In this document: in pieces, positions 45 to 11,315 of the stretch
Numbering within the stretch: the stretch's first letter is position 1
How the letters are laid out: the number at the start of each line of letters is the position of its first letter
Origin: a virus
Taxonomy: Duplodnaviria; Heunggongvirae; Uroviricota; Caudoviricetes
DNA length: 12,596 nt
Reading direction: 5' to 3' (one strand)
IMG/VR virus record: IMGVR_UViG_2695420714_000002
Made by a program: the position numbers and the translations under genes
Notes under the pieces: model-generated
What the model saw: the letters and a program-made list of their open reading frames with translations, nothing else
Database searches by the model: none
What the model was told of the DNA's origin: nothing

Positions 45-98
45 CCTGTTTACCTCTTTCTCAGGAAGTTTAGTCTCCAGGATTCCCGGGGCGGTTCA
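1..98 (-). mobile_element. Left end of an IS3-family insertion sequence (IS629/IS1203/IS3411-like), partial; continues beyond the left edge of the window
   Basis: The minus strand from position 98 reads TGAACCGCCCCGGGAATCCTGGAGACTAAACTTCCTGAGAAAGAGGTAAACAGG followed by ATGACTAAAAATACTCGTTTTTCCCCTGAAGTCCGTCAACGGGC. From memory this matches the terminal inverted repeat and orfA leader of IS629-type elements, including the TG terminus typical of the IS3 family. The IS terminal TGA supplies the stop codon of the adjacent 371-aa ORF. Confidence 0.75.
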
Positions 99-1211
99 GT
101 TATATCGCTTTCCTGCTGCCTCAATGAATTTTTGTTGCCCTTTAGTCGCAGATTCATAAAGCTGTTTATCAGAAATGCCACCCAGACCATCGCTAAATGT
201 TCTGACTAAATTTTCTCGTGCTTGTTGTTGATTCAGCCGATTCTTACCGGTTCCAAAAAAAGGAACTCTTTCGCCTAATGTCTGAGCCTGACTCTGCATA
301 AAGGTTTTATCTTTCAGCATGTCACTGGTCATTAACGGCAGATTTCTTTCCGATGCAAAGTCGACAGCAGCCTTTGCTTCAGGCGACATATCACCACGAA
401 CAGCCCTCGAAACCGCACTCGCTGTATTTTCCAGCCCCTTACCAATACCACCAATGCCAGCAGAAATTACCGTTTGTAACGGATCAATATCTTCTCCACC
501 AGCCTTGCTGGTGGCTCCCTGTAGTGCTAAATCTGTAGCTGCTGATTTTCCTATGGCACCAAGCACCGTTCCAGCCCTGCCCGCTGGTGTAAACGCCAGC
601 GCATTAGCCAGAAACGAAGTCAGGTCTTGCGGTGATAAACCCGGCTTGTTCAGGGCATAATCACCTGATGGCAGAGAAACGATAGTATTCCCCTTCTCAT
701 CCTGCCTTAATGTCGCCCCCATGCCCTGAAGAATCTTTTCCTGAGACGCGTCAGAGCCGAAAAGTTGAGACCATCCAGCCTTCAGGGCATCCATGCTTAG
801 TGAGTTCAATTCTGGGGCAGAGGCGACATTTTGCAGTCTCTCCATCTCTGGAGTCATTCGGCTTTCGCCTGTTATAGCATCGCGCATCGCAGTCCCAAGA
901 CTGGCTCCCTGTTCTGCTGAACGCTCAAGCCCCTCTCTTTGCTGAGTAGCTAACTTTGCATACCCTGACGCAAGAGAATTATCAGATGATGTATGTTGAA
1001 TATTTTGAGTTGCTGATTGGGAGCGGTCTATTTCATTCGTAGATGGTAGTGGATAGGCAGCATAAAAAGCCTGCTTAGCCTGCTCTACACTTTCTCCGGC
1101 TTGCGGGGCCACGACTTCATTGAAGTATTGCTCCTGAGCCTGCACTTTTTGTTCTGGTGCTAACGCCTGATACTGTGGAGAGGCGATAACATCTTTCCAT
1201 GCTTTAGCCAT
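96..1211 (-). CDS. Putative phage ejection (DNA-transfer) protein, P22 gp16-like by synteny, C-terminally truncated by the IS insertion (371 aa)
   Basis: Complete ORF in the track, last gene of a coupled four-gene cassette; its start overlaps the stop of the upstream gene by 1 nt. Ala/Gly/Gln/Ser-rich, low-complexity composition. The stop codon is the first 3 nt of the IS end, so the natural C-terminus is missing (P22 gp16 is about 609 aa, from memory). Assignment rests on size, order and composition only. Confidence 0.45.
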   Translation of the reverse strand: MAKAWKDVIASPQYQALAPEQKVQAQEQYFNEVVAPQAGESVEQAKQAFYAAYPLPSTNEIDRSQSATQNIQHTSSDNSLASGYAKLATQQREGLERSAEQGASLGTAMRDAITGESRMTPEMERLQNVASAPELNSLSMDALKAGWSQLFGSDASQEKILQGMGATLRQDEKGNTIVSLPSGDYALNKPGLSPQDLTSFLANALAFTPAGRAGTVLGAIGKSAATDLALQGATSKAGGEDIDPLQTVISAGIGGIGKGLENTASAVSRAVRGDMSPEAKAAVDFASERNLPLMTSDMLKDKTFMQSQAQTLGERVPFFGTGKNRLNQQQARENLVRTFSDGLGGISDKQLYESATKGQQKFIEAAGKRYN

Positions 1212-2632
1212 TAATCACCCCATAGTGAAGAAAAATTACTGCTGGCTGCTGGCTGTGATACCTGCTCAGATTGCGGCAATGTCTGCGACGAAGAAGAAGT
1301 TCCTCTGTCAACTGCTGAAATAACACGCAAAGCATCATAAGCTCGACCAGAAGCAGCTTTCAGCGAATTGAACTGGTTTTCCATCTTCCGGCGCTTGGTA
1401 TCAATGGTTTTTGTGGAGTCGCCAGGCTGAGGGAAATACATTTGATAATATTTTGACATTTCAGCAGGTACGATAGCTGCCCCTGTTTCCTGACGGAGTA
1501 TTGCCATTATTGCGTCATTAGCATTAACAACGTATTGCTGCTCTGTTGGGCTGAGCGTTAAGTTAGCCAGCGTCCCATTACCCAAAGCATTATTAATGAT
1601 CGCCACTCGCTGTGGGCTAAGCTGGCCTTTCAGTGTATCCATTGAATCAAGAGCATCCCTAACTCTGTATGCAAATCCAGCAGCTTTTTTAGCCCCTTCT
1701 GGCGACTTTTCCATGATCTTTTGGGCTGTTGGCAAAGCTATTGGACGAAACCCATCTCCAGATATTGGCTGGTTTAGTTTTCCCTGCTCTTCACTTCCGT
1801 CTGTGTAGTATTTTGTGACAGTGCCATCATCGTTTTCCCTAACACTCATTAATTTTTTGGCGTTTGTATTAATTCCAGCCGCTGCCGCAAATGCCGCTGC
1901 CCCCTCTGGATCCGCCTTTAACATTTGCGCGTACTGATTGTAATTCTGCATTGCGGCTGTTGGTGCATATGCTGACGTTAACGCATTTGCTCGGCTAATA
2001 TCCTGCCCTCTCGCCTGAAGCGCCTCTCCAGCCTGATTGCTGCGGATTGTCTCTGCCAACTTGCCACGCTCAATATCCCGACCTTCCATTCGATCTTTGA
2101 TATCGAAGTACTTCTCATGACCGAGAGAAAACAGTGCCATACTACCAGCAAGCCGCTGGAATTCCTGTGGATCATTAACATGCATTTCGGCAACAGACTC
2201 AGGAGAAATTCCCAAGCGACGCATTTCATCTTCGTTATCTGCTATGAATTTTCCAAATGCCCCAGTTCCGAGCGAAGATGCGATTTGAGCACTAGTCGCA
2301 AGATGACCAATAGAATTTCTCTGGTCGTCATCAATAAAGCCCATCCCTTTCTGAACGCTTTCAAATTCTTCTGGATACTCAGAAATAAGACTGCGCATTT
2401 TGTTTCTGTCTCCAGACTCAAAAGCCCCGGCATATGCTTTCTGAAACTCTGCTTTACGCTGTTGTTGACGTGCCTGCTGATTAATCTCAGCAACGCCTCT
2501 TAGCCCCTGTAGCGCCATTAAACCTACGTTTGGCTGCTGCTGAAACTGCACAGGCTGAGGAACGGAAGAACGAGGAGCATTATCATTTTGCGGTACCATG
2601 CTAGGCAGCCCGCCAAGTTGCCATGTCGCCAT
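1211..2632 (-). CDS. Putative phage ejection (DNA-transfer) protein, P22 gp20-like (473 aa)
   Basis: 473-aa ORF. Overlaps the upstream gene stop at 2632 and the downstream gene start at 1211 by 1 nt each. Size matches P22 gp20 (about 471 aa, from memory) and it sits between gp7-like and gp16-like genes. Gln/Ala-rich, predicted helical. No similarity search was possible. Confidence 0.5.
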   Translation of the reverse strand: MATWQLGGLPSMVPQNDNAPRSSVPQPVQFQQQPNVGLMALQGLRGVAEINQQARQQQRKAEFQKAYAGAFESGDRNKMRSLISEYPEEFESVQKGMGFIDDDQRNSIGHLATSAQIASSLGTGAFGKFIADNEDEMRRLGISPESVAEMHVNDPQEFQRLAGSMALFSLGHEKYFDIKDRMEGRDIERGKLAETIRSNQAGEALQARGQDISRANALTSAYAPTAAMQNYNQYAQMLKADPEGAAAFAAAAGINTNAKKLMSVRENDDGTVTKYYTDGSEEQGKLNQPISGDGFRPIALPTAQKIMEKSPEGAKKAAGFAYRVRDALDSMDTLKGQLSPQRVAIINNALGNGTLANLTLSPTEQQYVVNANDAIMAILRQETGAAIVPAEMSKYYQMYFPQPGDSTKTIDTKRRKMENQFNSLKAASGRAYDALRVISAVDRGTSSSSQTLPQSEQVSQPAASSNFSSLWGD

Positions 2633-3309
2633 TAGAATCCAAGCCCCCCAACAAGACCAATAAGCCCACCACCAATAGCCCCGGCGACATTACCTATACC
2701 CGGAACAACGGAACCAAGTTGCGCACCCGCTAAAGCGCCTGATGCCGCCCCACCAATACCACGCGCAAGACTGGATGGCTGCTGCGCCTGACCTGCACGA
2801 ATAGCGCCAAGCCCCTGCAAGAGTTGTCCGGTATTATTGGCGTAGTTTTGCCCTGCTGTTGCCTGCCCTGATGCCGCATTCATCCCGACATTTAGCAGGT
2901 TTCCATAATTTTGCATTTGCCCACTAAGCCAATTGTTATAAAGCATGGGCGCAATGGAAGATAACTGGTTACTGGTAGCTGTTGAGCCAAGCCCCCCGGT
3001 AGCTTCTGCTGAGACAAGGTTCTGATAACGGGCCTGATCTGCCTGTGTTTTATATAAACCAGAACCAAAGAAATCATTCGCGGCTTTATTCTGCCCTTCC
3101 AGAGTCATCAGTCCTTGTAGTTGTTGTAAAGCAGGCAATCCGACTTCTGCATACGGCTTGAGATTATTCATCACCGTATTCCACTGCTCGCGCTGCAAAT
3201 CAATTGCCTGCTGCTGGGCCTTCGCCTGAGCTTTAGAGGCACCACCATCACCGCCTTTTTCGTATACGGCACGATTGAGATGTTTATGAGCTATATGGGT
3301 AATTAACAC
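2632..3309 (-). CDS. Putative phage ejection (DNA-transfer) protein, P22 gp7-like (225 aa) with glycine-zipper hydrophobic C-terminus
   Basis: 225-aa ORF; P22 gp7 is about 229 aa (from memory). The C-terminal 40 residues are GIGGAASGALAGAQLGSVVPGIGNVAGAIGGGLIGLVGGLGF, a GxxxG-rich hydrophobic segment. Overlaps the upstream gene by 7 nt. Confidence 0.5.
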   Translation of the reverse strand: MLITHIAHKHLNRAVYEKGGDGGASKAQAKAQQQAIDLQREQWNTVMNNLKPYAEVGLPALQQLQGLMTLEGQNKAANDFFGSGLYKTQADQARYQNLVSAEATGGLGSTATSNQLSSIAPMLYNNWLSGQMQNYGNLLNVGMNAASGQATAGQNYANNTGQLLQGLGAIRAGQAQQPSSLARGIGGAASGALAGAQLGSVVPGIGNVAGAIGGGLIGLVGGLGF

Positions 3310-3764
3310 TCGCTGAATTCCTTATATTGTTGCCGAGTTAACTGATAAAGCGTTACGCCGACGGGTTTACCACATCTGATATAAGCATCATCAAGGTGAC
3401 CAACACGGGTAGCGCCAAGCAAACTGATAATTGCCCGTCCGTATTTCGTTGTGTCAGGAACCATGGTAATGCTGTTAAGGAATGGTGAGTTTTCGAGAAG
3501 CCATTTGCAGAATAATCGATGCCCTTGCAGTGCATATTCACCACGGAATCCGGGGTCGTACACCGCATGGCATTCAACAATGCTATGCCAGAAGTTACGC
3601 ACTTCATGAACGCCAGCCAGCACCAATCCTTCGTAGATACCGAGATATACCGCATCAGGCTTGATGTAGTACGTGTGCCCCGGCTCAACAATATTTTCGG
3701 TATTGCCAGGCTCGTTGAGAAAGGCCTGTAATCGCACAGGGTTATCAATAAATTTTAGTTCCAT
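3303..3764 (-). CDS. Hypothetical 153-aa protein, P22 gene-14-like position upstream of the ejection-protein genes (alternative: small acetyltransferase-like protein)
   Basis: 153-aa ORF, first large gene of the cassette; translation MELKFIDNPVRLQAF...YIRCGKPVGVTLYQLTRQQYKEFSEC. Weak SD (GGATGG) upstream of the ATG at 3764. The family assignment is an inference from synteny. Confidence 0.45.
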   Translation of the reverse strand: MELKFIDNPVRLQAFLNEPGNTENIVEPGHTYYIKPDAVYLGIYEGLVLAGVHEVRNFWHSIVECHAVYDPGFRGEYALQGHRLFCKWLLENSPFLNSITMVPDTTKYGRAIISLLGATRVGHLDDAYIRCGKPVGVTLYQLTRQQYKEFSEC

Positions 3765-4526: not shown

Positions 4527-7286
4527 TCATTCTTCAGATGAGTTGTAATCTCCTGGCTGGTAATTGAGTACATAAACGTTTATTTGTCGTCCCTGAATAC
4601 GTGGTGATTTTCTTTGGTATCCACGACCGCTGTTTGGTGGGGTTAGCATCCCGGCTTTTTTCAACACTTCAGCAAACTGTTTTGCGTTGAAACCACATGC
4701 GATCTCCTTTTCAAATGTGGCCGGGAATGTGTAGAAAATCATTGGGCTTTCGTCATGTTCTCCACGCTGACGGTATCCGGCTAAATCTTTGATGGGCAAA
4801 TCTGCCGGGCTGTATGGAAATGGTGCAAAACGGCTAAGCCCATAGGCATTAAGAAATGCCTCCGTTTGTTCAATAATCTGCTGATGTTCTTTGTTACCTG
4901 TGCCGAACTCGCGCAACCATGCGTTATAGCTGTGCTGTATCGCATCACGGCATGTCTGAGCATCCCAGCCTGTTACAACCTCGCCTAACAGCAATGCGGC
5001 CTCCAGAATGGCAAATCGCGCGGCTACACGGTGAACCTGCTCACCATAATCGGATGGGATCAGACTTCTCCATCTGCTTTCGCAGTCACGAACAGTTTTA
5101 ATTGCCTGTTGCTGGTGGTCTGCCAGCCATTTAATCCACTCACGCCCGGCTGCGCCGTGGTGATGCTGGTAAGCGTCTTTCAGTGCGTCTGCGTGCTGTT
5201 TTCCGTTCTGGTAATCGTGAAAGCGTACTGCTTTACTCAACGGAATATTCAGCAGTCGCACCAGTTGCCCGGCTTTGGTTTTTCGCCCGGAAGTAGCGAT
5301 AAATGTTTCTAAATCCATTTCTCCGGTGCTGATTGCCACTGTACGCCAGCGTTTTAGATCCCGGTTTCCACCATCTTTAGCGCCTTGCAGTTTCCCTACA
5401 CCGTTAAATAACGCATAGGCAGACTGTGAAACACTGACAGGATCAGCGCCCTGACCAACTTCATCAAGCGGCATTAGTCCGTCATTGTGGGCGGCGGCTT
5501 CATTTGCCAGCCCCAGCGCGGTTCCGTACCACGTCAGCCGCAGTAAATCAGGGTTGCCGTATAAGCTGCTCGCCACGTTTGCCGTGGTGGTCTTACCTGC
5601 GCTCGACTGCTCATAGAAATGAATGCCGAACCCGTCAGCGCCCACCAGCCCAATCAATGGCGCTGCCAGTGCTGCGCCGATCCCGGTCATCATTGAATAG
5701 TTACCAAAGGCCAGACGCGCCACGTTATCACGCCAGCTTTTCGCGCTCCCTGAGACGGTATATCCGGCTGCGGCTGAGCTTCTCCCGCTGAACAGCACAG
5801 GATTTTCAGGTGTTCCGATGATTTCCCCATCAGGCATGATGTACGCTCCGCATTGCCAGCCAGTGGCATGAGCAACACGCCACAATTCACGAGAGCCACT
5901 GCGTTGTAGCCAGTCTGCCAGTATTGCTCTGAGGCTGCTTTTGGTCGTGACATTTACCCCACCAGCTTTAAGTGTGCGCCATCCTTCACGTTCACCAATA
6001 TCAGCCAGTGGAATGGCAGCGGTTGTCGGCGTTTCAGAACCAAACGACAGCCAGCGAAGAATGAGATACTGGTCTTTATCGTCTCTGCCAGTACCGATAA
6101 CGCTTAACGGAGAACATAACCAGCTTTCGTTATTGATGATTTCTCCACTCTGGCTGTCAGCTCTCGGAGATACCCAATAAATGCCATCCTCGCGGCTTTC
6201 TATTCTTGGTTTCAGTGGGTCGGTATCCATAACCTTAAAATCGCTTCCCTCAATGGTTTGTGGCTCCTGTTTCACGCCATTACCCTGTGGTTGGTACATT
6301 GACTTATTGAACGCTTCTGTGGCGCATTTAATGCCGTGTTTTTGGTGGTAATCATTCCAGTCTGCTTTGTGATCTGTCGGGGGTAATGCCACCCATCCAG
6401 AAACAGATAAAGCTGCTTTTTCTGCTGCTATTCTCCCCGTGTTTTGTCTTCCTTCGCTGTGGTCGTTATCCGCAGCAATGATGATTTGTGCTGAAGGAAA
6501 TTTATCCCGCAGTACCTGGGCGACATATAACAGGTTCCCGGCATCAATCGCCGCCACTGTCAGCGCCTCTGGACGCATTAAATGGGCAGATAATGCCGTT
6601 GCCAGCCCTTCTGCGATTAAGATGCTCTGTGTTGTTTCTGGTGCGTTTATGGCGTGATATGCCCCCCGCTTTGCTGAACCTATCAGGAGTCTTTTTTCAC
6701 CATGTGAGGTAATAGTCTGTGCTGCTGTTACTGCGCCGGATTTATCCACCAGCGCCAGCAACAGAGATCCATCGGGCAACACGGGGAATGTAAAATCACC
6801 TACCCCTTTCGCAACCAGATAATCAGATTTGCCGTTTACAGCCTTTCTGCGCATGTCATCAAACTGACGGGAAAACGTATCCCGTCTTTGTTGTTCGTCC
6901 TTCTCTGCCCTTTTCAGGCGCTCCTGTTCGCGTCGCTGGCGCTCGGTTTCCAGTTGTTCCCGTTTCTGGCTGGTGGCTTCTGGTGTTTCCGTTGTCCGGT
7001 AATCAATACCCAGAACATCAGCGGCAAGAAGCGCCGCCTCTGTTGTGTCGCAGTTATTTACGCGTTTAATTAAATCCAGCCCATCACCAGCGCCGCACTG
7101 ATTACAGATGAAGCTACCGCGCCCGTTGTCATCGAACCGGAATCGATCTTTGCCCCCACATGCAGGGCAGGGAGCATGACGGCGCGGAGAGTCAGGGACA
7201 TTTATGTTCAGGCAGCCCAGCACATGAGGCCAGTTGTTTTCAGACGCACTGATAACCTGACGGATAAGATCAATGTTTCGCATCAC
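4527..7286 (-). CDS. Phage/plasmid-type DNA primase with zinc-binding N-terminus, TOPRIM domain and C-terminal P-loop NTPase (P4 alpha-like architecture), 919 aa
   Basis: Zinc-finger-like CPACGGKDRFRFDD...CNQCG near the N-terminus; TOPRIM-like acidic motif IIIAADNDHSEG; Walker A-like FYEQSSAGKTT. The first codon is GTG at 7286 with an ATG at 7283; a G-rich SD lies upstream. The start overlaps the upstream 123-aa gene by 17 nt. Confidence 0.85.
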   Translation of the reverse strand: MMRNIDLIRQVISASENNWPHVLGCLNINVPDSPRRHAPCPACGGKDRFRFDDNGRGSFICNQCGAGDGLDLIKRVNNCDTTEAALLAADVLGIDYRTTETPEATSQKREQLETERQRREQERLKRAEKDEQQRRDTFSRQFDDMRRKAVNGKSDYLVAKGVGDFTFPVLPDGSLLLALVDKSGAVTAAQTITSHGEKRLLIGSAKRGAYHAINAPETTQSILIAEGLATALSAHLMRPEALTVAAIDAGNLLYVAQVLRDKFPSAQIIIAADNDHSEGRQNTGRIAAEKAALSVSGWVALPPTDHKADWNDYHQKHGIKCATEAFNKSMYQPQGNGVKQEPQTIEGSDFKVMDTDPLKPRIESREDGIYWVSPRADSQSGEIINNESWLCSPLSVIGTGRDDKDQYLILRWLSFGSETPTTAAIPLADIGEREGWRTLKAGGVNVTTKSSLRAILADWLQRSGSRELWRVAHATGWQCGAYIMPDGEIIGTPENPVLFSGRSSAAAGYTVSGSAKSWRDNVARLAFGNYSMMTGIGAALAAPLIGLVGADGFGIHFYEQSSAGKTTTANVASSLYGNPDLLRLTWYGTALGLANEAAAHNDGLMPLDEVGQGADPVSVSQSAYALFNGVGKLQGAKDGGNRDLKRWRTVAISTGEMDLETFIATSGRKTKAGQLVRLLNIPLSKAVRFHDYQNGKQHADALKDAYQHHHGAAGREWIKWLADHQQQAIKTVRDCESRWRSLIPSDYGEQVHRVAARFAILEAALLLGEVVTGWDAQTCRDAIQHSYNAWLREFGTGNKEHQQIIEQTEAFLNAYGLSRFAPFPYSPADLPIKDLAGYRQRGEHDESPMIFYTFPATFEKEIACGFNAKQFAEVLKKAGMLTPPNSGRGYQRKSPRIQGRQINVYVLNYQPGDYNSSEE

Positions 7287-7641: not shown

Positions 7642-7975
7642 GAGAACCTCCCGCTACAGTTGCGCCCATGTCATTAACCATGCTTTGCCATATCTCACGC
7701 CCGACGTCAGTCAATCCGTCCTTAGTGACGCAACGATCAAGAAGCTCTATCACCACGGTTTCCCACTGCGGGTAGAACACTTTCATGGCTGCCAGTGTGT
7801 AGCTATCGATCAGGCTGCGAACGCCTTTTACTCCATTGACGATTTCCACACGGACGGCCTCGCCGTCCGCATCAACCATGAAATAGTCCCCGCCGCTGGT
7901 GGAGGTAATGTGGTTATACAGTGCCGACGCATACTTATTTGCCAGCGCATTCAGTCGGAAATTTTTAGTAATCAT
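7634..7975 (-). CDS. Hypothetical protein (113 aa)
   Basis: ATG at 7975 with GGAG/GAGGA upstream; 10-nt gap after the upstream gene stop; same-strand operon context. Confidence 0.55.
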   Translation of the reverse strand: MITKNFRLNALANKYASALYNHITSTSGGDYFMVDADGEAVRVEIVNGVKGVRSLIDSYTLAAMKVFYPQWETVVIELLDRCVTKDGLTDVGREIWQSMVNDMGATVAGGSHA

Positions 7976-7985
7976 GGCTCCATCC

Positions 7986-8588
7986 TCAGTGCGTCACTGG
8001 TTCCGCTGGCATGCCGTTTTCATTCAGTTCAGCTATAAAGCTGTTGTGAAGTTCAGCAAGCGTTTCACGACCAAATGGAGTCAGTGCTCCTTGTTCCACA
8101 TCCATCATGGCTCTGTAGAAAATGATGGCGCGTTCTGTGCCAGACTCGATGCCAAAACGTTCTATCATCGCGCCCTCAATGTTGTTTGCCATAGCGAGGC
8201 GCTCTGCTACTGGATACAGCGGCATGGCGACGATGCCGTTGGAATAAACAGCCACTTCGGAAGGATTGCCAGTATCATCAATGATGCTGACAGTGCCGTT
8301 TTCCTCTCTCATTTCCAGCATGAATACTGTTGCGATCAGCCATCTCCACATAATGACGTTATGCTGTGATGTGTAATCGAAATATCCTTGGTTGCCGCCA
8401 TCGGCAATAGCGAGATGTATTGACATACCTTCATCTGGTTTATCGTCATAATCCCCGGCATCCAGACGATTTACGGCATCAATATATGAAACGGCCTCAA
8501 CGCGTTCTGTCATGCCATCGTTGCTGCGGTGTATGATGTTTACGCCGTCAGGCGTTGCTTCTGCATGGAAGGTTAAGAAATTATTCAT
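7986..8588 (-). CDS. Hypothetical protein (about 200 aa; start re-called at the internal ATG, the track ORF extends to 8693)
   Basis: The track ORF 7986..8693 overlaps the upstream gene by about 110 nt. The internal Met (MNNFLTFHAEATPDG...) at about 8588 gives the ATGAATAA-type 8-nt start/stop overlap seen at other junctions in this operon, with GAGG upstream. Confidence 0.55.
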   Translation of the reverse strand: MNNFLTFHAEATPDGVNIIHRSNDGMTERVEAVSYIDAVNRLDAGDYDDKPDEGMSIHLAIADGGNQGYFDYTSQHNVIMWRWLIATVFMLEMREENGTVSIIDDTGNPSEVAVYSNGIVAMPLYPVAERLAMANNIEGAMIERFGIESGTERAIIFYRAMMDVEQGALTPFGRETLAELHNSFIAELNENGMPAEPVTH

Positions 8589-8802
8589 GTTTCGCCTCGC
8601 CTGAATGATTCTGTAACTCATATTTGCCCAACAATTCGTCTGCTTCCTGAATAGCTTCTGGTACGCCATTGAGCAGTGACATAACCGCGCCAATCATTAA
8701 CTTGTCTCTGTTGCTGGGGCTGGCCCCTTCAAGCCAGAACCCTAAAACAGTCTGAACCTGTTCGATGCGACATTGCGCTTCAATGAGCTGGATGTTGGTC
8801 AT
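8581..8802 (-). CDS. Hypothetical protein (73 aa)
   Basis: ATG at 8802 with SD GGAGAG about 6 nt upstream; ATGA-type 4-nt overlap with the upstream gene. Confidence 0.55.
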   Translation of the reverse strand: MTNIQLIEAQCRIEQVQTVLGFWLEGASPSNRDKLMIGAVMSLLNGVPEAIQEADELLGKYELQNHSGEAKHE

Positions 8803-9062
8803 TTCGCACTCTCCGCATCGATTAAACTGATATCTATCAGAGAGGTAACTTTTTGTAGCCAGCTAGTGATTACTGTCGCCTGTTCCCCTCCCACCGATGG
8901 AAGAATCTCATTCATCACATGAACCAGACCTGTGCGCGCTCTGGTAAGCCGTTCAGTCGTGCGATCTGCAAGAGTGAATGTGTCTGGATATGGCTCTTCA
9001 CGGCTCAGCAATGATTCAATTTCCAGCTCACACGGATGACGATAAATTAAGTTGATATTCAT
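8799..9062 (-). CDS. Hypothetical protein (87 aa)
   Basis: ATG at 9062 with a G-rich SD (GGGGG) about 7 nt upstream; ATGA overlap with the upstream gene stop. Confidence 0.55.
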   Translation of the reverse strand: MNINLIYRHPCELEIESLLSREEPYPDTFTLADRTTERLTRARTGLVHVMNEILPSVGGEQATVITSWLQKVTSLIDISLIDAESAK

Positions 9063-9253
9063 TTTTCACCCCCAAGAATTACCAGCTCTGCACGAGCATC
9101 GTTAACCAAAGATGAGCACGCTTTAATCGCATCCACGACATCAGCAGCGTCCATTTCTTCAGCCGAAAGACTGACAGCAACCAGGACAGCCGCTGCTTGC
9201 TCGATTAATTGAAGTGCGGACGTAAGTCGAGGGGCATTAATTGAGTTATTCAT
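9059..9253 (-). CDS. Hypothetical protein (about 64 aa; start re-called at the internal ATG, the track ORF extends to 9310)
   Basis: Internal Met ([10 protein letters not shown]...) at 9253 with AGGGG about 7 nt upstream and an 8-nt ATGAATAA-type overlap with the stop of the upstream 72-aa gene. The longer track start would overlap that gene by about 65 nt. Confidence 0.5.
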   Translation of the reverse strand: MNNSINAPRLTSALQLIEQAAAVLVAVSLSAEEMDAADVVDAIKACSSLVNDARAELVILGGEK

Positions 9254-9464
9254 TGGTTGCCCCTGTTTTTCCAGGCATTTCGCCACCTTCCAGCAGGAAA
9301 TGAACGTCACGAACGGCGAGATCCAATATCGCGAGTAACGCCTTCAGTTTTTCGTCTCGTGAGGGAGAGTTGCTCACCAGAATGTCATTAATCACTTCTG
9401 TCAGTGTGATGATCTGGCTTGTGCGTTCGAGGGGATCCATATGCACATCGTAGGTTTTAATCAT
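9246..9464 (-). CDS. Hypothetical protein (72 aa; [13 protein letters not shown]...), annotated here as an independent gene rather than the C-terminus of the 355-aa track ORF
   Basis: ATG at 9464 preceded by SD GGAGG with a 6-nt spacer. The start overlaps the stop of the 64-aa gene as ATGATTAA. The translated sequence is helical and protein-like, unlike the 355-aa frame immediately upstream of it. Confidence 0.6.
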   Translation of the reverse strand: MIKTYDVHMDPLERTSQIITLTEVINDILVSNSPSRDEKLKALLAILDLAVRDVHFLLEGGEMPGKTGATNE

Positions 9465-10313
9465 GTGCCACCTCCATGCGGATACGACCAGCAAAAAAGC
9501 AGACGTGATCGCGCACCAGAGAACGGCGAGCATCGCGTTCAGACTCGGCAGCAATATGATGAATTTTGGCGGTAATTGTCGGGCAATCGCGGCGAACTGC
9601 GGCGATAATCCAGATAAATTGCGGTTTTTGGGTAGGGGTAGTAGCCAGCATGTGGCAGCCTCCTTGTACTGGGAATTCTTCCCACCACCGGAGCTGCGAA
9701 ACTCGCTGGTGGTGGACTGAACAGAGTTCGCAGTACCGGCGTACAAGGAAACCGGCCAGCCTTTCGGCTGCCCTGTCCAGCCCACCATAATTTTGCAAGC
9801 GACGCGGATTATAACCACATCACTGAAAAAAGTGTGAGTCTGGCTAACGGCACAAAAAAAGACGCTCGGCGCGTCATGTGTCGCCTCGTACATTTCCGGG
9901 CTGCGAAACCCGGCACCCGTTTTATGAGGTGCCTTATAACCATAAACCGTGTTGCCGCATAACGACAAGCTCTTTTTTATGGACTCCGAAAACTCACTAT
10001 TGGAAGCACCAGATGCACAATACATCGCGCTCATTTCGTTAACGTCGCGCGTGTGGACGAAGGTTTTTGTGGAGCCACTACGCGAGCAGAGAAAGCCATC
10101 TACGACCAGAAATTCTCTGGCGCAGCCGCTGACCCTCTCAACGCTAACACCATCGACCGTAATTTCTGACATAGTTAAGGCATCCGCTCCTACCACCAGC
10201 AAATGATAAACCTTGCTTGCATCTGCTGTATTAATGCCTGATTTTGCTGTCATATTGCTGGATTTTTGCGACATACCAGCCAGTGAAAATATCTTCTTCT
10301 GGGCGGTTAGCAT
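9246..10313 (-). CDS. ORF with a strong start at 10313 (355 aa in the track); probably composite: an N-terminal hypothetical protein of about 150 aa that has lost its stop, or reads through, fused in frame across the leader to the 72-aa gene
   Basis: ATG at 10313 with SD GGAGG about 7 nt upstream and an ATGCTAA-type overlap with the upstream gene stop, so a real gene starts here. The frame stays open through a hairpin-T7 element, a TATAAT, a structured leader and the 64-aa gene in another frame. Both alternative frames hit stop codons shortly after the T7 tract. Confidence 0.3.
9457..9651 (-). CDS. Hypothetical protein (64 aa; [22 protein letters not shown]...), first gene of the small-gene/primase operon
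   Basis: Internal ATG of the 113-aa track ORF 9457..9798, preceded by a perfect SD (AAGGAGG) with about a 7-nt spacer. Its stop TAA overlaps the next gene's ATG. It lies in a different frame from the 355-aa track ORF, whose translation here is compositionally odd (Trp/Pro-rich). By my base count the ATG is at 9650..9648, one nt off the frame implied by the track. Confidence 0.5.
   Translation of the reverse strand: MLATTPTQKPQFIWIIAAVRRDCPTITAKIHHIAAESERDARRSLVRDHVCFFAGRIRMEVAHD
9653..9747 (-). promoter_or_regulatory. Structured 5' leader: nested hairpins with pseudoknot potential that occlude the SD of the 64-aa gene
   Basis: Outer 8-bp stem CCTTGTAC (9661-9668) with GTACAAGG (9740-9747); the mRNA arm overlaps the AAGGAGG SD. 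Inner 10-bp GC-rich stem 9681-9690 with 9705-9714, with a 14-nt loop. Loop sequence CTGCGAA (9694-9700) is complementary to TTCGCAG (9726-9732). Confidence 0.4.
9853..9874 (-). terminator. Terminator-like GC hairpin followed by a T7 run on the minus strand (candidate attenuator or intrinsic terminator)
   Basis: Plus-strand A7 at 9853-9859 followed by GACGC-tcggc-GCGTC at 9860-9874; on the minus-strand RNA this is a hairpin followed by UUUUUUU. The stem is only 5 bp, so this is weak. A TATAAT on the minus strand (about 9812..9807) follows it. Confidence 0.3.
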
Positions 10314-10489
10314 TTGTTAACCTCCGCGAACTCCTTCATGAAACGTGCCAGCGGTTGTACGCATGGCGATTGATACCCGTCGCGATAAAACGTCACTCGG
10401 TTGTGAGACACGCTTTCGACAGTAACGAGTGCTCCGTGGGCATCTTTGTAGCGTTTTTGAGGTTGTGGTGTTCCTGTCGGCTTAAACAT
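10307..10489 (-). CDS. Hypothetical small protein (60 aa; start re-called at the internal ATG, the track ORF extends to 10576)
   Basis: Internal Met (MFKPTGTPQPQKRYKDAHG...) at 10489 with SD GGAGG 6 nt upstream and an 8-nt overlap with the antirepressor stop (ATGTTTAA). The longer track start lies inside the antirepressor gene. Confidence 0.55.
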   Translation of the reverse strand: MFKPTGTPQPQKRYKDAHGALVTVESVSHNRVTFYRDGYQSPCVQPLARFMKEFAEVNKC

Positions 10490-11315
10490 GGACCGCCTCC
10501 AGACGCTTAGCGAGCCAGCGTTGCGACAGGCGGGTGAGTTCTCCTTTGCGCTGCTCATATTCCATGCCCATATCAATTAACGTGATATTGGTGCTTTCGA
10601 GATATGAGAGGTGCTCAAGCTGTTCTGCGTTCATATGGTCGCGAGGTTCGCCAGAATAGCCATTTATCCGCGCCCACTGCTTAGCAGTTAGCCCACCAAG
10701 AACGATACGAGAAATCATATTGCTCTCGTTTGTGTAGTGGTGTTGCTGCGTCGTTTTACCCATCTCGGCACGGGCCATATTCAGCGCATCGCACATTGGC
10801 TTAAAGTTGTTTGCGGCACTGATACGGGCTTTTAGCTGGCGACGATAGCGGGCGGCGATTTCAGGCACGCTACGCTGTAATTCTTCCTCGCACTGGATGA
10901 AATAACGGCGGATAGCGCGACCCTGATCATTGCGTTCGATCATTGCCAGTTCTTTCGCCATTCCGACACTTAACAGATAGTCTTTGCCGGGCCTGCCAGA
11001 CTGCTTAATCTTGCTGTAAGCCGCGCCATTCGGGCTTTTCCCCAAATTTGGGGAAATTGTTTTATGGACTGAGTAATCGCGCCCAATGGTGAAGTCATAC
11101 TCAGAGATGCGATCAGTGATCCATGTAGAGAAGTCTTTTCCCACGCCCAACGCTTTGTGTAACGCTTTTGCGCTAACAATATTGGTTTCACGCCCACCGA
11201 TATGACCAGGAATAACCGGGACAATTGCGGCAAATTCATTACCGTTAATTGTGCCCAGAAAGGCGTTCGGATGAGGGGCGGCCTCAGAAATTAATCTGCT
11301 TTTTTCGATGTTCAT
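10482..11315 (-). CDS. Phage antirepressor-like protein, AntA/AntB family (277 aa)
   Basis: Segments such as VSAKALHKALGVGKDFSTWITDRISEYDFTIGRDY and DYLLSVGMAKELAMIERNDQGRAIRRYFIQCEEEL match conserved AntA-type antirepressor motifs as I recall them. SD GGAGAC 8 nt upstream of the ATG at 11315. Confidence 0.6.
   Translation of the reverse strand: MNIEKSRLISEAAPHPNAFLGTINGNEFAAIVPVIPGHIGGRETNIVSAKALHKALGVGKDFSTWITDRISEYDFTIGRDYSVHKTISPNLGKSPNGAAYSKIKQSGRPGKDYLLSVGMAKELAMIERNDQGRAIRRYFIQCEEELQRSVPEIAARYRRQLKARISAANNFKPMCDALNMARAEMGKTTQQHHYTNESNMISRIVLGGLTAKQWARINGYSGEPRDHMNAEQLEHLSYLESTNITLIDMGMEYEQRKGELTRLSQRWLAKRLEAVHV

Follow-up and report, generated by a model that had tools for sequence, protein, structure and literature searches.

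The minus strand of the viral contig analysed here (IMGVR_UViG_2695420714_000002, Caudoviricetes; its 12,596 nt are hereafter the window) encodes an IsrK/seqA-like RNA followed by a C4/CI-type antisense RNA, and this region is very probably a P4-type RNA immunity module within an EcCIMP1-like phage-inducible island of E. coli. The system itself is not new: it is the IsrK/seqA plus C4/CI antisense RNA immunity module of phages and satellites, an object of study since the 1990s. An earlier note, built on three mutually complementary repeats, had guessed at an immunity region of the P4 CI or P1 c4 type, and the guess was right. An Rfam search for such RNAs, run as the note had proposed, returned both families on the minus strand: C4 at 81.1 bits (gathering score 45; full length, model positions 1-87 of 87) and isrK at 69 bits (gathering score 50; full length, model positions 1-77 of 77). 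The AntA-type antirepressor and the primase that were said to flank the region do so (Table 1).

Table 1. Features of the RNA module and of its neighbouring genes in the 12,596-nt window.
Feature	Position	Strand	Basis or remark
Primase (Zn ribbon, Toprim, DUF927)	4527-7286	minus	Pfam; distal gene of the controlled operon
355-aa 'Ash' ORF, P4 Eta analogue	9246-10313	minus	Pfam Phage_ASH; PGAP 'ash family protein'
64-aa Icd / P4 Kil-like gene	9457-9651	minus	ATG 9649-9651; first gene of the operon ending with the primase
a2, GUACAAGGAGG	9659-9669	minus	contains the Shine-Dalgarno AAGGAGG (9659-9665) of the icd-like gene
Alternative hairpin	9682-9715	minus	CCACCACC (9708-9715) pairs with GGUGGUGG (9682-9689); b2 in the loop
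X2, CCGGAGCTGCGAAAC	9688-9702		core is b2
b2, UUCGCAG	9694-9700	minus	core of X2; P4 seqC-like; leader of the icd-like gene; 100% paired with b'
C4/CI-type antisense RNA	9705-9792	minus	Rfam RF01695
Y, GTTCGCAGTACCGG	9726-9739		inverted copy; core is b'
b', CUGCGAA	9727-9733	minus	core of Y; single-stranded junction of C4; pairs with b1 and b2
a', UUUCCUUGUAC	9741-9751	minus	C4 hairpin-2 loop; pairs with a1 and a2; in the 9-nt inverted repeat
IsrK intrinsic terminator	9854-9875	minus	stem 9861-9875 GACGC-GCCGA-GCGUC; T-run 9854-9860 (U7)
IsrK/seqA-like RNA	9855-9932	minus	Rfam RF01394
a1, GUACGAGG	9884-9891	minus	just 3' of X1; complementary to the C4 hairpin-2 loop, with one G.U
X1, CCGGGCTGCGAAAC	9896-9909		core is b1
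b1, UUCGCAG	9901-9907	minus	core of X1; loop of hairpin B, the second isrK hairpin; complementary to b'
Putative -10, TATGGT	9939-9944	minus	candidate constitutive promoter before isrK; putative equivalent of P4 PLE
AntA	10482-11315		Pfam; upstream of the RNA module

The C4 RNA is made of a closing stem (9771-9786 with 9711-9726), hairpin 1 (9757-9770) and hairpin 2 (9735-9756). All three helices are paired in 100% of the 51 distinct homologous regions that form our comparison set, with 13 covarying pairs (compensatory in 7, 5 and 1). What had been described as a 10-bp GC hairpin exists, but it is really hairpin 1 of C4, with 5 bp and a GAAA loop. The closing stem has conserved an acceptor-like (tRNA-like) form, and the RNA ends in a nearly invariant 3' ACCA tail (9707-9710). 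The isrK match comprises, in order, hairpin A (9913-9932), hairpin B (9897-9912), a single-stranded stretch and an intrinsic terminator, and its helices are 99.7-100% paired in the 51 sequences. This terminator, already suspected as a hairpin followed by seven U residues, was found independently by a terminator scan and is nearly invariant in the 51 sequences.

The three repeats reported earlier are all present, each one nucleotide further along than had been stated. A repeat search recovers the direct repeat as 9693-9705 / 9900-9912 (92%) and the inverted repeat as 9688-9700 / 9727-9739 (85%). Two further inverted repeats did not figure in the earlier note: a perfect 9-nt repeat that joins the Shine-Dalgarno region to the C4 loop (9661-9669 / 9741-9749), and CCACCACC/GGTGGTGG at 9682-9689 / 9708-9715. 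Taken alone, the 7-nt core is not significant across the window (5 matches vs 2.3 expected; 17 of 200 shuffles reach 5), so the case that the repeats are not due to chance rests on covariation.

This covariation, which had been put forward as the test of the X1/Y/X2 complementarity, is found in the 51 regions, with compensatory pairs in each pairing. Y is paired with X1 and with X2 in 100% of cells: b1:b' (alignment columns 216-222) shows both-sided changes in 6 of 7 pairs, and b':b2 compensatory changes in 6 of 7. A second complementarity, overlooked earlier, is as conserved as X/Y. It joins the hairpin-2 loop of C4, CCUUGUAC, to two sites: GUACAAGGAGG, which spans the Shine-Dalgarno sequence, and GUACGAGG, 3' of X1; a1:a' is 99% paired (alignment columns 201-208; compensatory in 7 of 8 pairs) and the 8-bp core of a':a2 is 98-100% paired, with 7 compensatory pairs. 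All four long-range pairings covary. Slid controls for the long-range pairs are 36-47% paired, and not one of 500 shuffles attains the structure tested as a whole, local helices and long-range pairs included.

The homologues fall into many specificity types. There are 16 variants of a' and 9 of b', occurring in 23 combinations, and both targets match in nearly every sequence. Cognate duplexes have energies of -31.3 and -26.4 kcal/mol vs -16.1 and -12.6 kcal/mol for non-cognate ones; the upstream duplexes are about 5 kcal/mol weaker, and a1 is often one G.U weaker than a2. Such free reassortment of the two recognition segments suggests a two-key immunity code. A P2-like phage has only the b segment (the b key) in common with the island, which may allow mobile elements some partial cross-talk. 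A helper phage of matching specificity, as a partner in cross-talk, was considered and set aside: just 6 viral contigs contain the exact a'+b' 28-mer, each of them with the same island type, and among phage records none carries the exact C4 recognition 41-mer.

Downstream of the RNAs, the first gene of the operon matches NCBIfam phage_ICD_like (71.7 bits), its product is 44% identical to P4 Kil (E 4e-11), and its first ~90 nt are C-rich and G-poor (C/G about 2). In its leader, the 8-bp stem proposed to occlude the Shine-Dalgarno site (GCAGCUCC / GGAG-G-CUGC) does fold in this sequence, but the helix is not conserved (85% paired vs 84% in shuffles; central pair broken in 43 of 51) and we rejected it. 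The alternative hairpin, in which CCACCACC combines the tail with the 3' strand of the C4 closing stem, is 99.5% paired, with compensatory changes in 4 of 8 pairs.

At the other end of the module, the putative -10 TATGGT lies 6-7 nt ahead of the point where the Rfam isrK match begins, with a possible -35 TTGTCG 18 nt upstream of it. Its positions T1, A2, T3 and T6 are invariant in the 51 sequences and in P4; in a consensus promoter scan TATGGT stays below threshold, which neither candidate promoter reaches. The second candidate, the TATAAT pointed out earlier, is indeed present on the minus strand (9808-9813), in the loop of a hairpin between the terminator and C4. We do not claim it as a second promoter because the support for this hairpin is only moderate (74% paired vs 62%; the stretch aligns poorly and is missing from the homologues L002, L037 and L077) and the consensus scan makes no call.

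The closest known counterpart is satellite P4, laid out as PLE - seqA - CI RNA/seqB - seqC - kil, nested in eta and followed by the alpha primase. P4 seqA is IsrK and P4 CI is C4 (PMC3632133); how eta and kil work has been summarised, and C4/isrK matches in Gram-negative PICIs reported, elsewhere (PMC10111431). P4 itself scores 74.9 bits for C4 and 60.8 bits for isrK, in the same order and orientation as here, and the two regions align collinearly, including the a and b sites on both sides. In P4, too, an alternative hairpin (CUAUCGCC/GGCGAUAG) occupies the same place, a Kil/Icd-like gene comes first downstream, a Phage_ASH ORF covers the RNAs and a primase ends the operon. The differences are that (i), the isrK-to-C4 spacer is 107 nt in P4 vs 62 nt here; (ii), the recognition segments of P4 are a' CCUGUGAA and b' UUCUCAC, vs a' CCUUGUAC and b' CUGCGAA here; (iii), the primase is 33% identical to P4 alpha over the N-terminal 359 aa, only this N-terminal half being common, and its C-terminal part here is DUF927 and (iv), kil is nested in frame with eta, whereas the Ash ORF here is out of frame with icd and fused to the next gene.

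The immI operon of P1/P7 consists of the c4 antisense RNA, icd and ant, with a1/b1 and a2/b2 target sites; in P1 ant comes directly after icd, to which its translation is coupled. Its RNA belongs to the same Rfam C4 family and has bipartite recognition, with targets on both sides, the downstream one over the icd ribosome-binding site; our a and b labels are given by analogy with P1. In the P1-like phage D6, isrK and C4 lie directly before icd and ant. The gene controlled in P1 is the antirepressor, whereas here AntA is upstream of the module, small ORFs and then the primase are downstream, in place of the antirepressor of P1 immI, and the controlled operon carries replication functions. Rfam's model for the a1/b1 region of P1 scores below threshold here (22.5 bits vs 46.7). 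The third counterpart is the IsrK - orf45 (STnc1160) - AnrP region of Salmonella Gifsy-1, with the same isrK family and its own terminator. There IsrK acts in trans, the conserved downstream sequence gives a processed RNA of ~80 nt complementary to IsrK, the system drives the antirepressor and prophage induction, and the downstream element has been read as the translated orf45, not as C4 (PMC4825925). In our element, by contrast, an Icd-like ORF lies downstream and the cargo consists of a primase operon. The isrK-C4 tandem also occurs in the lambdoid phages Stx1a and SfV.

Rho-dependent termination and RNase P processing are known from P4 and P1. By homology with these systems, the module may work as follows: (i), a constitutive promoter just upstream of 9932 would drive minus-strand transcription, most transcripts ending at the terminator (9854-9875) to give an IsrK/seqA-like RNA of ~78 nt; (ii), read-through transcripts would contain the C4/CI RNA (9705-9792), probably excised by RNase P and 3' processing, RNase P excision being thought probable because of the tRNA-like closing stem and the ACCA tail; (iii), a' and b' (Y), presumably acting in trans, would jointly pair with b2 (X2) and a2 and so cover the icd/kil-like Shine-Dalgarno site; (iv), blocked translation would expose the C-rich RNA and cause premature, probably Rho-dependent, termination, so that neither the small genes nor the primase would be expressed from the integrated island and, (v) a' and b' would also pair with b1 (X1) and a1 of IsrK, either in cis, where, as in P4, pairing within the nascent transcript would help to terminate it and to establish immunity, or in trans, IsrK then being a decoy that, as in Gifsy-1, sets the leader free.

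The role of the upstream seqA/IsrK site is unsettled in the literature, for P4 and Gifsy-1 alike (PMC3632133, PMC4825925), and the 23 natural specificity variants form a clean set with which to probe it. The main job of X1/a1 may be that of its Gifsy-1 counterpart, with IsrK a decoy and activator in trans and the module an inducible ON switch rather than a repressing device. We regard this as a real possibility while leaning against it. The isrK match is full length with its own terminator, IsrK supplied in trans raises translation of the downstream ORF >100-fold in Gifsy-1 (PMC4825925), and the weaker upstream duplexes, with their additional G.U, fit a titratable decoy; against it, the seqA site of P4 was reported to be essential for establishing immunity, that is, for repression (PMC3632133). 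The P4-type and Gifsy-1-type roles of this site are not mutually exclusive.

It is improbable that the region is a purely cis-acting attenuator, in which Y would pick X1 or X2, and thereby terminator or antiterminator, with no stable RNA acting in trans. In the minimum free energy fold of the 305-nt read-through RNA the seqA-like segment is indeed paired in cis with a'/b', and the helix 9708-9715 / 9682-9689 both competes with the C4 closing stem and covaries. However, the tRNA-like closing stem and the nearly invariant ACCA tail are maintained, the homologues in P4, P1 and Gifsy-1 give a stable, processed and trans-acting RNA (PMC4825925, PMC3632133), and the combinatorial specificity types are those expected of a trans-acting immunity factor.

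The region had been treated as the leader of the small-gene/primase operon. It is an RNA leader, but probably not a solely untranslated one: it lies inside the 355-aa Ash ORF. The ATG of this ORF overlaps the stop of the DUF4222 gene; the frame then runs through isrK, C4 and the targets, passes over icd in the +1 frame. It stops 211 nt past the icd stop codon, where it shares the reading frame of the 72-aa gene that follows (9246-9464). Its residues 124-232 (window 9618-9944) match Phage_ASH, the same match being given by the eta-frame ORF of P4; the N-terminal 123 aa and the 72-aa gene after icd have no Pfam or NCBIfam match. In 50 of the 51 homologues no stop interrupts the Ash frame, which indels of 39, 42 and 12 nt leave intact. 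The icd ATG is offset from the Ash frame by 2 (modulo 3) and is therefore not nested as in P4; Ash is in frame with icd, as in P4, in about 20 homologues, and about two thirds cross icd in the +1 frame. The alternative frame over icd is open in 39 of 39 homologues where Ash uses it vs 6 of 20 otherwise, counts that are not independent since the sequences are related.

In the P4-type module, transcripts from the alpA-antA-DUF4222 operon upstream would have Ash/Eta translated straight across the region. By analogy with P4 Eta, this translation would block RNA pairing and termination and would thus allow immunity-insensitive expression; the P4 mechanism may not transfer in detail since Ash is out of frame with icd here. 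As far as we could find, such an out-of-frame 'read-through shield' variant of P4 eta/kil has apparently not been described before. It is tempting to speculate that the Ash frame is kept for uninterrupted ribosome transit and not for its protein sequence, in combination with a two-key immunity code, a joint reading that we advance tentatively and consider rather unlikely as a whole.

The open Ash frame also raises the opposite reading, that the repeats reflect repeated peptide motifs under coding constraint and not RNA pairing. Pfam does model the region as a protein family, and X1 and X2 have similar translations (GFRSP and EFRSS). However, coding constraint fails for an inverted Y that changes together with both direct copies, for G.U-tolerant substitutions and for the C4 helices, and the amino acids over the a and b sites vary freely while pairing is kept; we give it hardly any credence. 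The suggestion that the functional RNA is instead a plus-strand transcript antisense to the leader is just as implausible: folding both strands, as had been proposed, shows that the plus strand too folds better than shuffles (-109.3 kcal/mol, z -3.3), but less well than the minus strand (-132.8 kcal/mol, z -5.4), while the conserved minus-strand G.U pairs (10-30 sequences per closing-stem pair) would become C.A, and the C4 and isrK Rfam matches are on the minus strand only.

Judged from its genes, the element fits an EcCIMP1-like phage-inducible chromosomal island (PICI) of E. coli. EcCIMP1, which resides in E. coli MP1 and is mobilised by Kapi1, a P22-like phage, has the same gene set (integrase, AlpA, PerC, antirepressor, 'Ash family protein', DNA primase, DUF2824 and DNA-transfer proteins), and the paper that describes it makes no mention of an RNA regulator or an icd-like gene (PMC11773190). 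PerC, AntA, DUF4222 and P22-like DNA-transfer genes are present in our element. In the annotation of the closest genome there is no sid, psu or delta, so that it does not qualify as a P4-like satellite. EcCIMP1 lies between proA and yagU, whereas in the complete genome closest to our element the island adjoins yicC.

The module is the likely switch for the replication genes of EcCIMP1-type islands, and its value lies in annotation and in work on this island family; as a discovery it counts for little. PGAP calls the entire region 'ash family protein', so that the icd/kil-like gene and the two RNA genes are missing from its annotation. A census of P4-like satellites took the Pfam family PF10554 as its 'epsilon' marker; what the family in fact matches is this RNA region in translation. 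Of 5426 E. coli genomes, 130 contain the exact C4 recognition 41-mer, all but one of them as a single copy; carriers include the mouse-derived strain NGF1 as well as ABU 83972 and 214-4. Among the matches listed, the 41-mer always falls under a CDS called 'ash family protein' or 'Icd-like protein'.

The triad region belongs to a known immunity system, of which it is a textbook case; since any Rfam scan would flag it, it must be regarded as already known. Both the C4 antisense RNA (RF01695, 81.1 bits against a curated threshold of 45) and isrK (RF01394, 69 bits against 50) are found here, ahead of a 64-aa gene that matches the NCBIfam model 'host cell division inhibitor Icd-like' (71.7 bits; icd hereafter). 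In phage P4 (NC_001609), Rfam places C4 at 8420-8507 and isrK at 8615-8692, in the order seen in the window, and the two RNA regions are collinear on alignment. The likeness to the P4 CI and P1 c4 RNAs proposed in the earlier note is borne out. IsrK and C4 have been described as structural homologues of the P4 seqA and CI RNAs (PMC3632133), and the Rfam profiles of both also match Gram-negative PICIs (PMC10111431).

A repeat search recovered both the direct pair X1/X2 and the inverted pairing with Y; all three copies announced by the earlier note are in the sequence, each displaced by one base from where it had put them. In isrK, X1 makes up the loop of hairpin two; Y falls within the unpaired junction of C4, on the 3' side of hairpin 2, and X2 lies between C4 and the Shine-Dalgarno sequence (SD) of icd. 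The terminator-like element that had been pointed out is also present, and the search returned two further inverted repeats that had escaped notice. The 7-nt core of the repeats shows no excess by itself across the window (5 matches against 2.3 expected), so that its significance must rest on the comparison of homologues.

Features of the RNA region and of the overlapping genes (window coordinates)
Feature	Sequence	Position	Strand	Remarks
Ash ORF, 355 aa		10313 to 9246	minus	PGAP 'ash family protein'
Likely -10	TATGGT	9939-9944		
isrK		9855-9932	minus	RF01394
X1	CCGGGCTGCGAAAC	9896-9909		core, b1
a1	GUACGAGG	9884-9891		in isrK; alignment columns 57-64
Terminator-like stem		9861-9875		followed by T7
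C4		9705-9792	minus	RF01695
a'	CCUUGUAC	9741-9748		loop of C4 hairpin 2
Y	GTTCGCAGTACCGG	9726-9739		core, b'
X2	CCGGAGCTGCGAAAC	9688-9702		core, b2
a2	GUACAAGG(AGG)	9659-9669		across icd SD; 9662-9669 = alignment columns 284-291
Alternative helix	CCACCACC with GGUGGUGG	9708-9715 with 9682-9689		3' strand of C4 closing stem; X2 in hairpin loop
Further inverted repeat	TCCTTGTAC/GTACAAGGA	9661-9669 / 9741-9749		
Further inverted repeat	CCACCACC/GGTGGTGG	9682-9689 / 9708-9715		
Direct repeat, 9 nt, exact	TGGTTATAA	9934-9942 and 9809-9817	minus	
SD of icd	AAGGAGG	9659-9665	minus	
icd, 64 aa		9651 to 9457	minus	
72-aa gene		9246-9464		SD GGAGG; ATG overlaps icd stop

Homologues were sought in viral contigs with the Icd-like protein, rather than the RNA, as query. 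In almost all of the 80 loci obtained, a stretch of about 305 nt ahead of icd is homologous; across this RNA region, identity to the window can be as low as about 72% even where Icd is 100% identical. The window and 50 further distinct sequences were aligned, and the structures to be tested were fixed before scoring. The X1/Y/X2 complementarity is kept and covaries across these 51 sequences: b1:b' and b':b2 are each paired in 100% of cells, with changes on both sides in 6 of 7 pairs. A second complementarity, missed in the earlier note, links the loop of C4 hairpin 2 to two further targets: a1:a' is 99% paired (both-sided changes in 7 of 8 pairs) and a':a2 98-100% paired in its 8-bp core (7 both-sided pairs). 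Pairing is complete (100%) in the three helices internal to C4, where 13 pairs covary. In 500 column shuffles the values observed for the whole tested structure were never reached, and sliding the partner by 1-3 columns lowered pairing to 36-47%. As the segments run b1-a1 ... a'-b' ... b2-a2 along the RNA, both interactions are antiparallel and nested. The helix that C4's closing strand can form around X2 covaries as well (99.5% paired, compensatory changes in 4 of 8 pairs) and has an equivalent in P4.

Among these sequences, 16 variants of a' and 9 of b' occur in 23 combinations, and both targets match in nearly every sequence. Predicted energies of cognate duplexes are -31.3 +/- 2.0 (downstream) and -26.4 +/- 1.5 kcal/mol (upstream), against -16.1 and -12.6 kcal/mol for pairs with neither segment in common. 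The upstream duplexes are thus about 5 kcal/mol weaker, and a1 often differs from a2 by one transition that keeps pairing as G.U (GUACGAGG vs GUACAAGG; GUUGUCGG vs GUUAUCGG). These combinatorial specificity types may merit a short follow-up.

The functional strand is the minus strand. An antisense RNA from the plus strand had been considered on grounds of stability but, when both strands were folded, the minus strand proved the more stable (-132.8 kcal/mol, z -5.4, vs -109.3 kcal/mol, z -3.3); G.U pairs of the minus strand at many conserved positions and the a1/a2 transitions likewise rule out the plus-strand RNA.

A P4-type mechanism is the best-supported reading. A putative constitutive promoter, whose likely -10 is invariant at T1, A2, T3 and T6 in the alignment, would yield mainly a terminated IsrK/seqA-like RNA and some read-through precursor, from which C4 would be cut out. 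C4-type RNAs of P1 and P4 are processed by RNase P, and the acceptor-like stem and ACCA tail of C4 are consistent with such processing. Its a' and b' would then pair with a2 and b2, covering the SD of the icd/kil-like gene, and the untranslated C-rich RNA would be terminated, presumably by Rho, leaving the primase operon off. Over 9560-9680 of the minus strand, a stretch that takes in the first ~90 nt of icd, C makes up 35% and G 17% (C/G ~2), as expected of a Rho utilisation site. Pairing with a1/b1 may either assist repression in cis, as in P4, or allow free IsrK to titrate C4, as in Gifsy-1 (PMC4825925). The sequences themselves establish the family membership, the structure, the covarying pairings between RNAs, the collinearity with P4 and the conserved ORF; processing, action in trans, the part played by Rho and shielding by translation are inferred. 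Of the two TGGTTATAA copies, one lies just upstream of isrK and the other some 20 nt ahead of C4; the latter includes the TATAAT singled out in the earlier note, a candidate second promoter, and falls in the loop of a hairpin with weak support.

The RNA region is more than intergenic, as the Ash ORF traverses it. The Pfam Phage_ASH match (PF10554; residues 124-232, window 9618-9944) takes in precisely isrK and C4 together with the target sites and the start of icd. The P4 eta/kil-frame ORF (8168-8812), the historical 'cI', which is the translated seqA-CI-seqC region, matches it too, with an Icd-like match at its C-terminus. The eta gene of P4 begins ahead of the constitutive internal promoter, whose transcripts are terminated via CI/seqA interactions; Kil is a truncated product, and translation of full-length Eta from the upstream late promoter prevents termination (PMC10111431). 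Upstream-initiated transcripts with Ash translated through the region would similarly evade control. The window's DUF4222 gene, upstream of Ash, has its stop codon overlapped by the Ash ATG, an arrangement that resembles the eta-to-alpA translational coupling of P4. The Ash frame is stop-free in 50 of the 51 aligned sequences, with 1-8 stops in each of the other two frames, and the indels observed (39, 42 and 12 nt) leave it intact. About 20 elements share the P4 arrangement, with Ash and icd in one frame; in about 30, including the window, the two are out of frame, and there Ash still traverses icd and stops with the next gene. Wherever Ash uses it, the +1 frame over icd (9457-9651; loci L002-L081) is open (39 of 39 distinct icd sequences, window included); of the 20 sequences in which Ash and icd share a frame, 14 have one or more stops there and only 6 have none. 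The counts come from related sequences rather than independent events. Judged from these sequences, the overlapping frame seems to be held open only where used; this out-of-frame Ash/Eta variant and its selectively open frame may also merit a short follow-up.

The overlap has consequences for annotation. Because PGAP (NZ_CP025840) calls the Ash ORF (9246-10313), icd, the 72-aa gene and both RNA genes are left out, hidden under an 'ash family protein'. A census of P4-like satellites used PF10554 as epsilon marker (PMC8628076); the P4 epsilon protein (7888-8175) matches PF25738, not PF10554, which fits the eta frame. This too may merit follow-up.

Among complete genomes, E. coli 214-4 comes closest (99.6% identity over 1 kb); in it the element adjoins yicC and reads integrase, AlpA-type HTH, AntA, DUF4222, Ash (holding isrK, C4 and icd), small ORFs, Toprim/DUF927 primase, DUF2824, DNA ejection proteins and PerC. 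The same set of genes makes up EcCIMP1, a PICI that the P22-like phage Kapi1 mobilises; window 96-3764, downstream of the primase, encodes P22-type DNA ejection/transfer homologues and a DUF2824 protein in what is otherwise a PICI, matching EcCIMP1 and its P22-like helper. The isrK-C4 module is widespread: the tandem stands ahead of icd and ant in D6, a P1-like phage, is contained in Ant/'immunity region' ORFs of SfV and of an Stx1a phage, and precedes replication genes in a P2-like phage. In the latter (vB_EcoM-569R5, Peduoviridae, ON470599, 2501-2760, upstream of replication gene A), the b segment is that of the window (CUGCGAA/UUCGCAG) and 34 nt are identical to the isrK 5' half; the a segment is unlike the window's (a2 target CUACACAAGG). 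Conceivably, the island and such phages recognise one another in part. Of 5426 complete E. coli genomes, 1110 carry the 1-kb region with 80-100% identity, and the window's exact C4 recognition 41-mer is present in 130 E. coli genomes, NGF1 and ABU 83972 among them, as a single copy in all but one.
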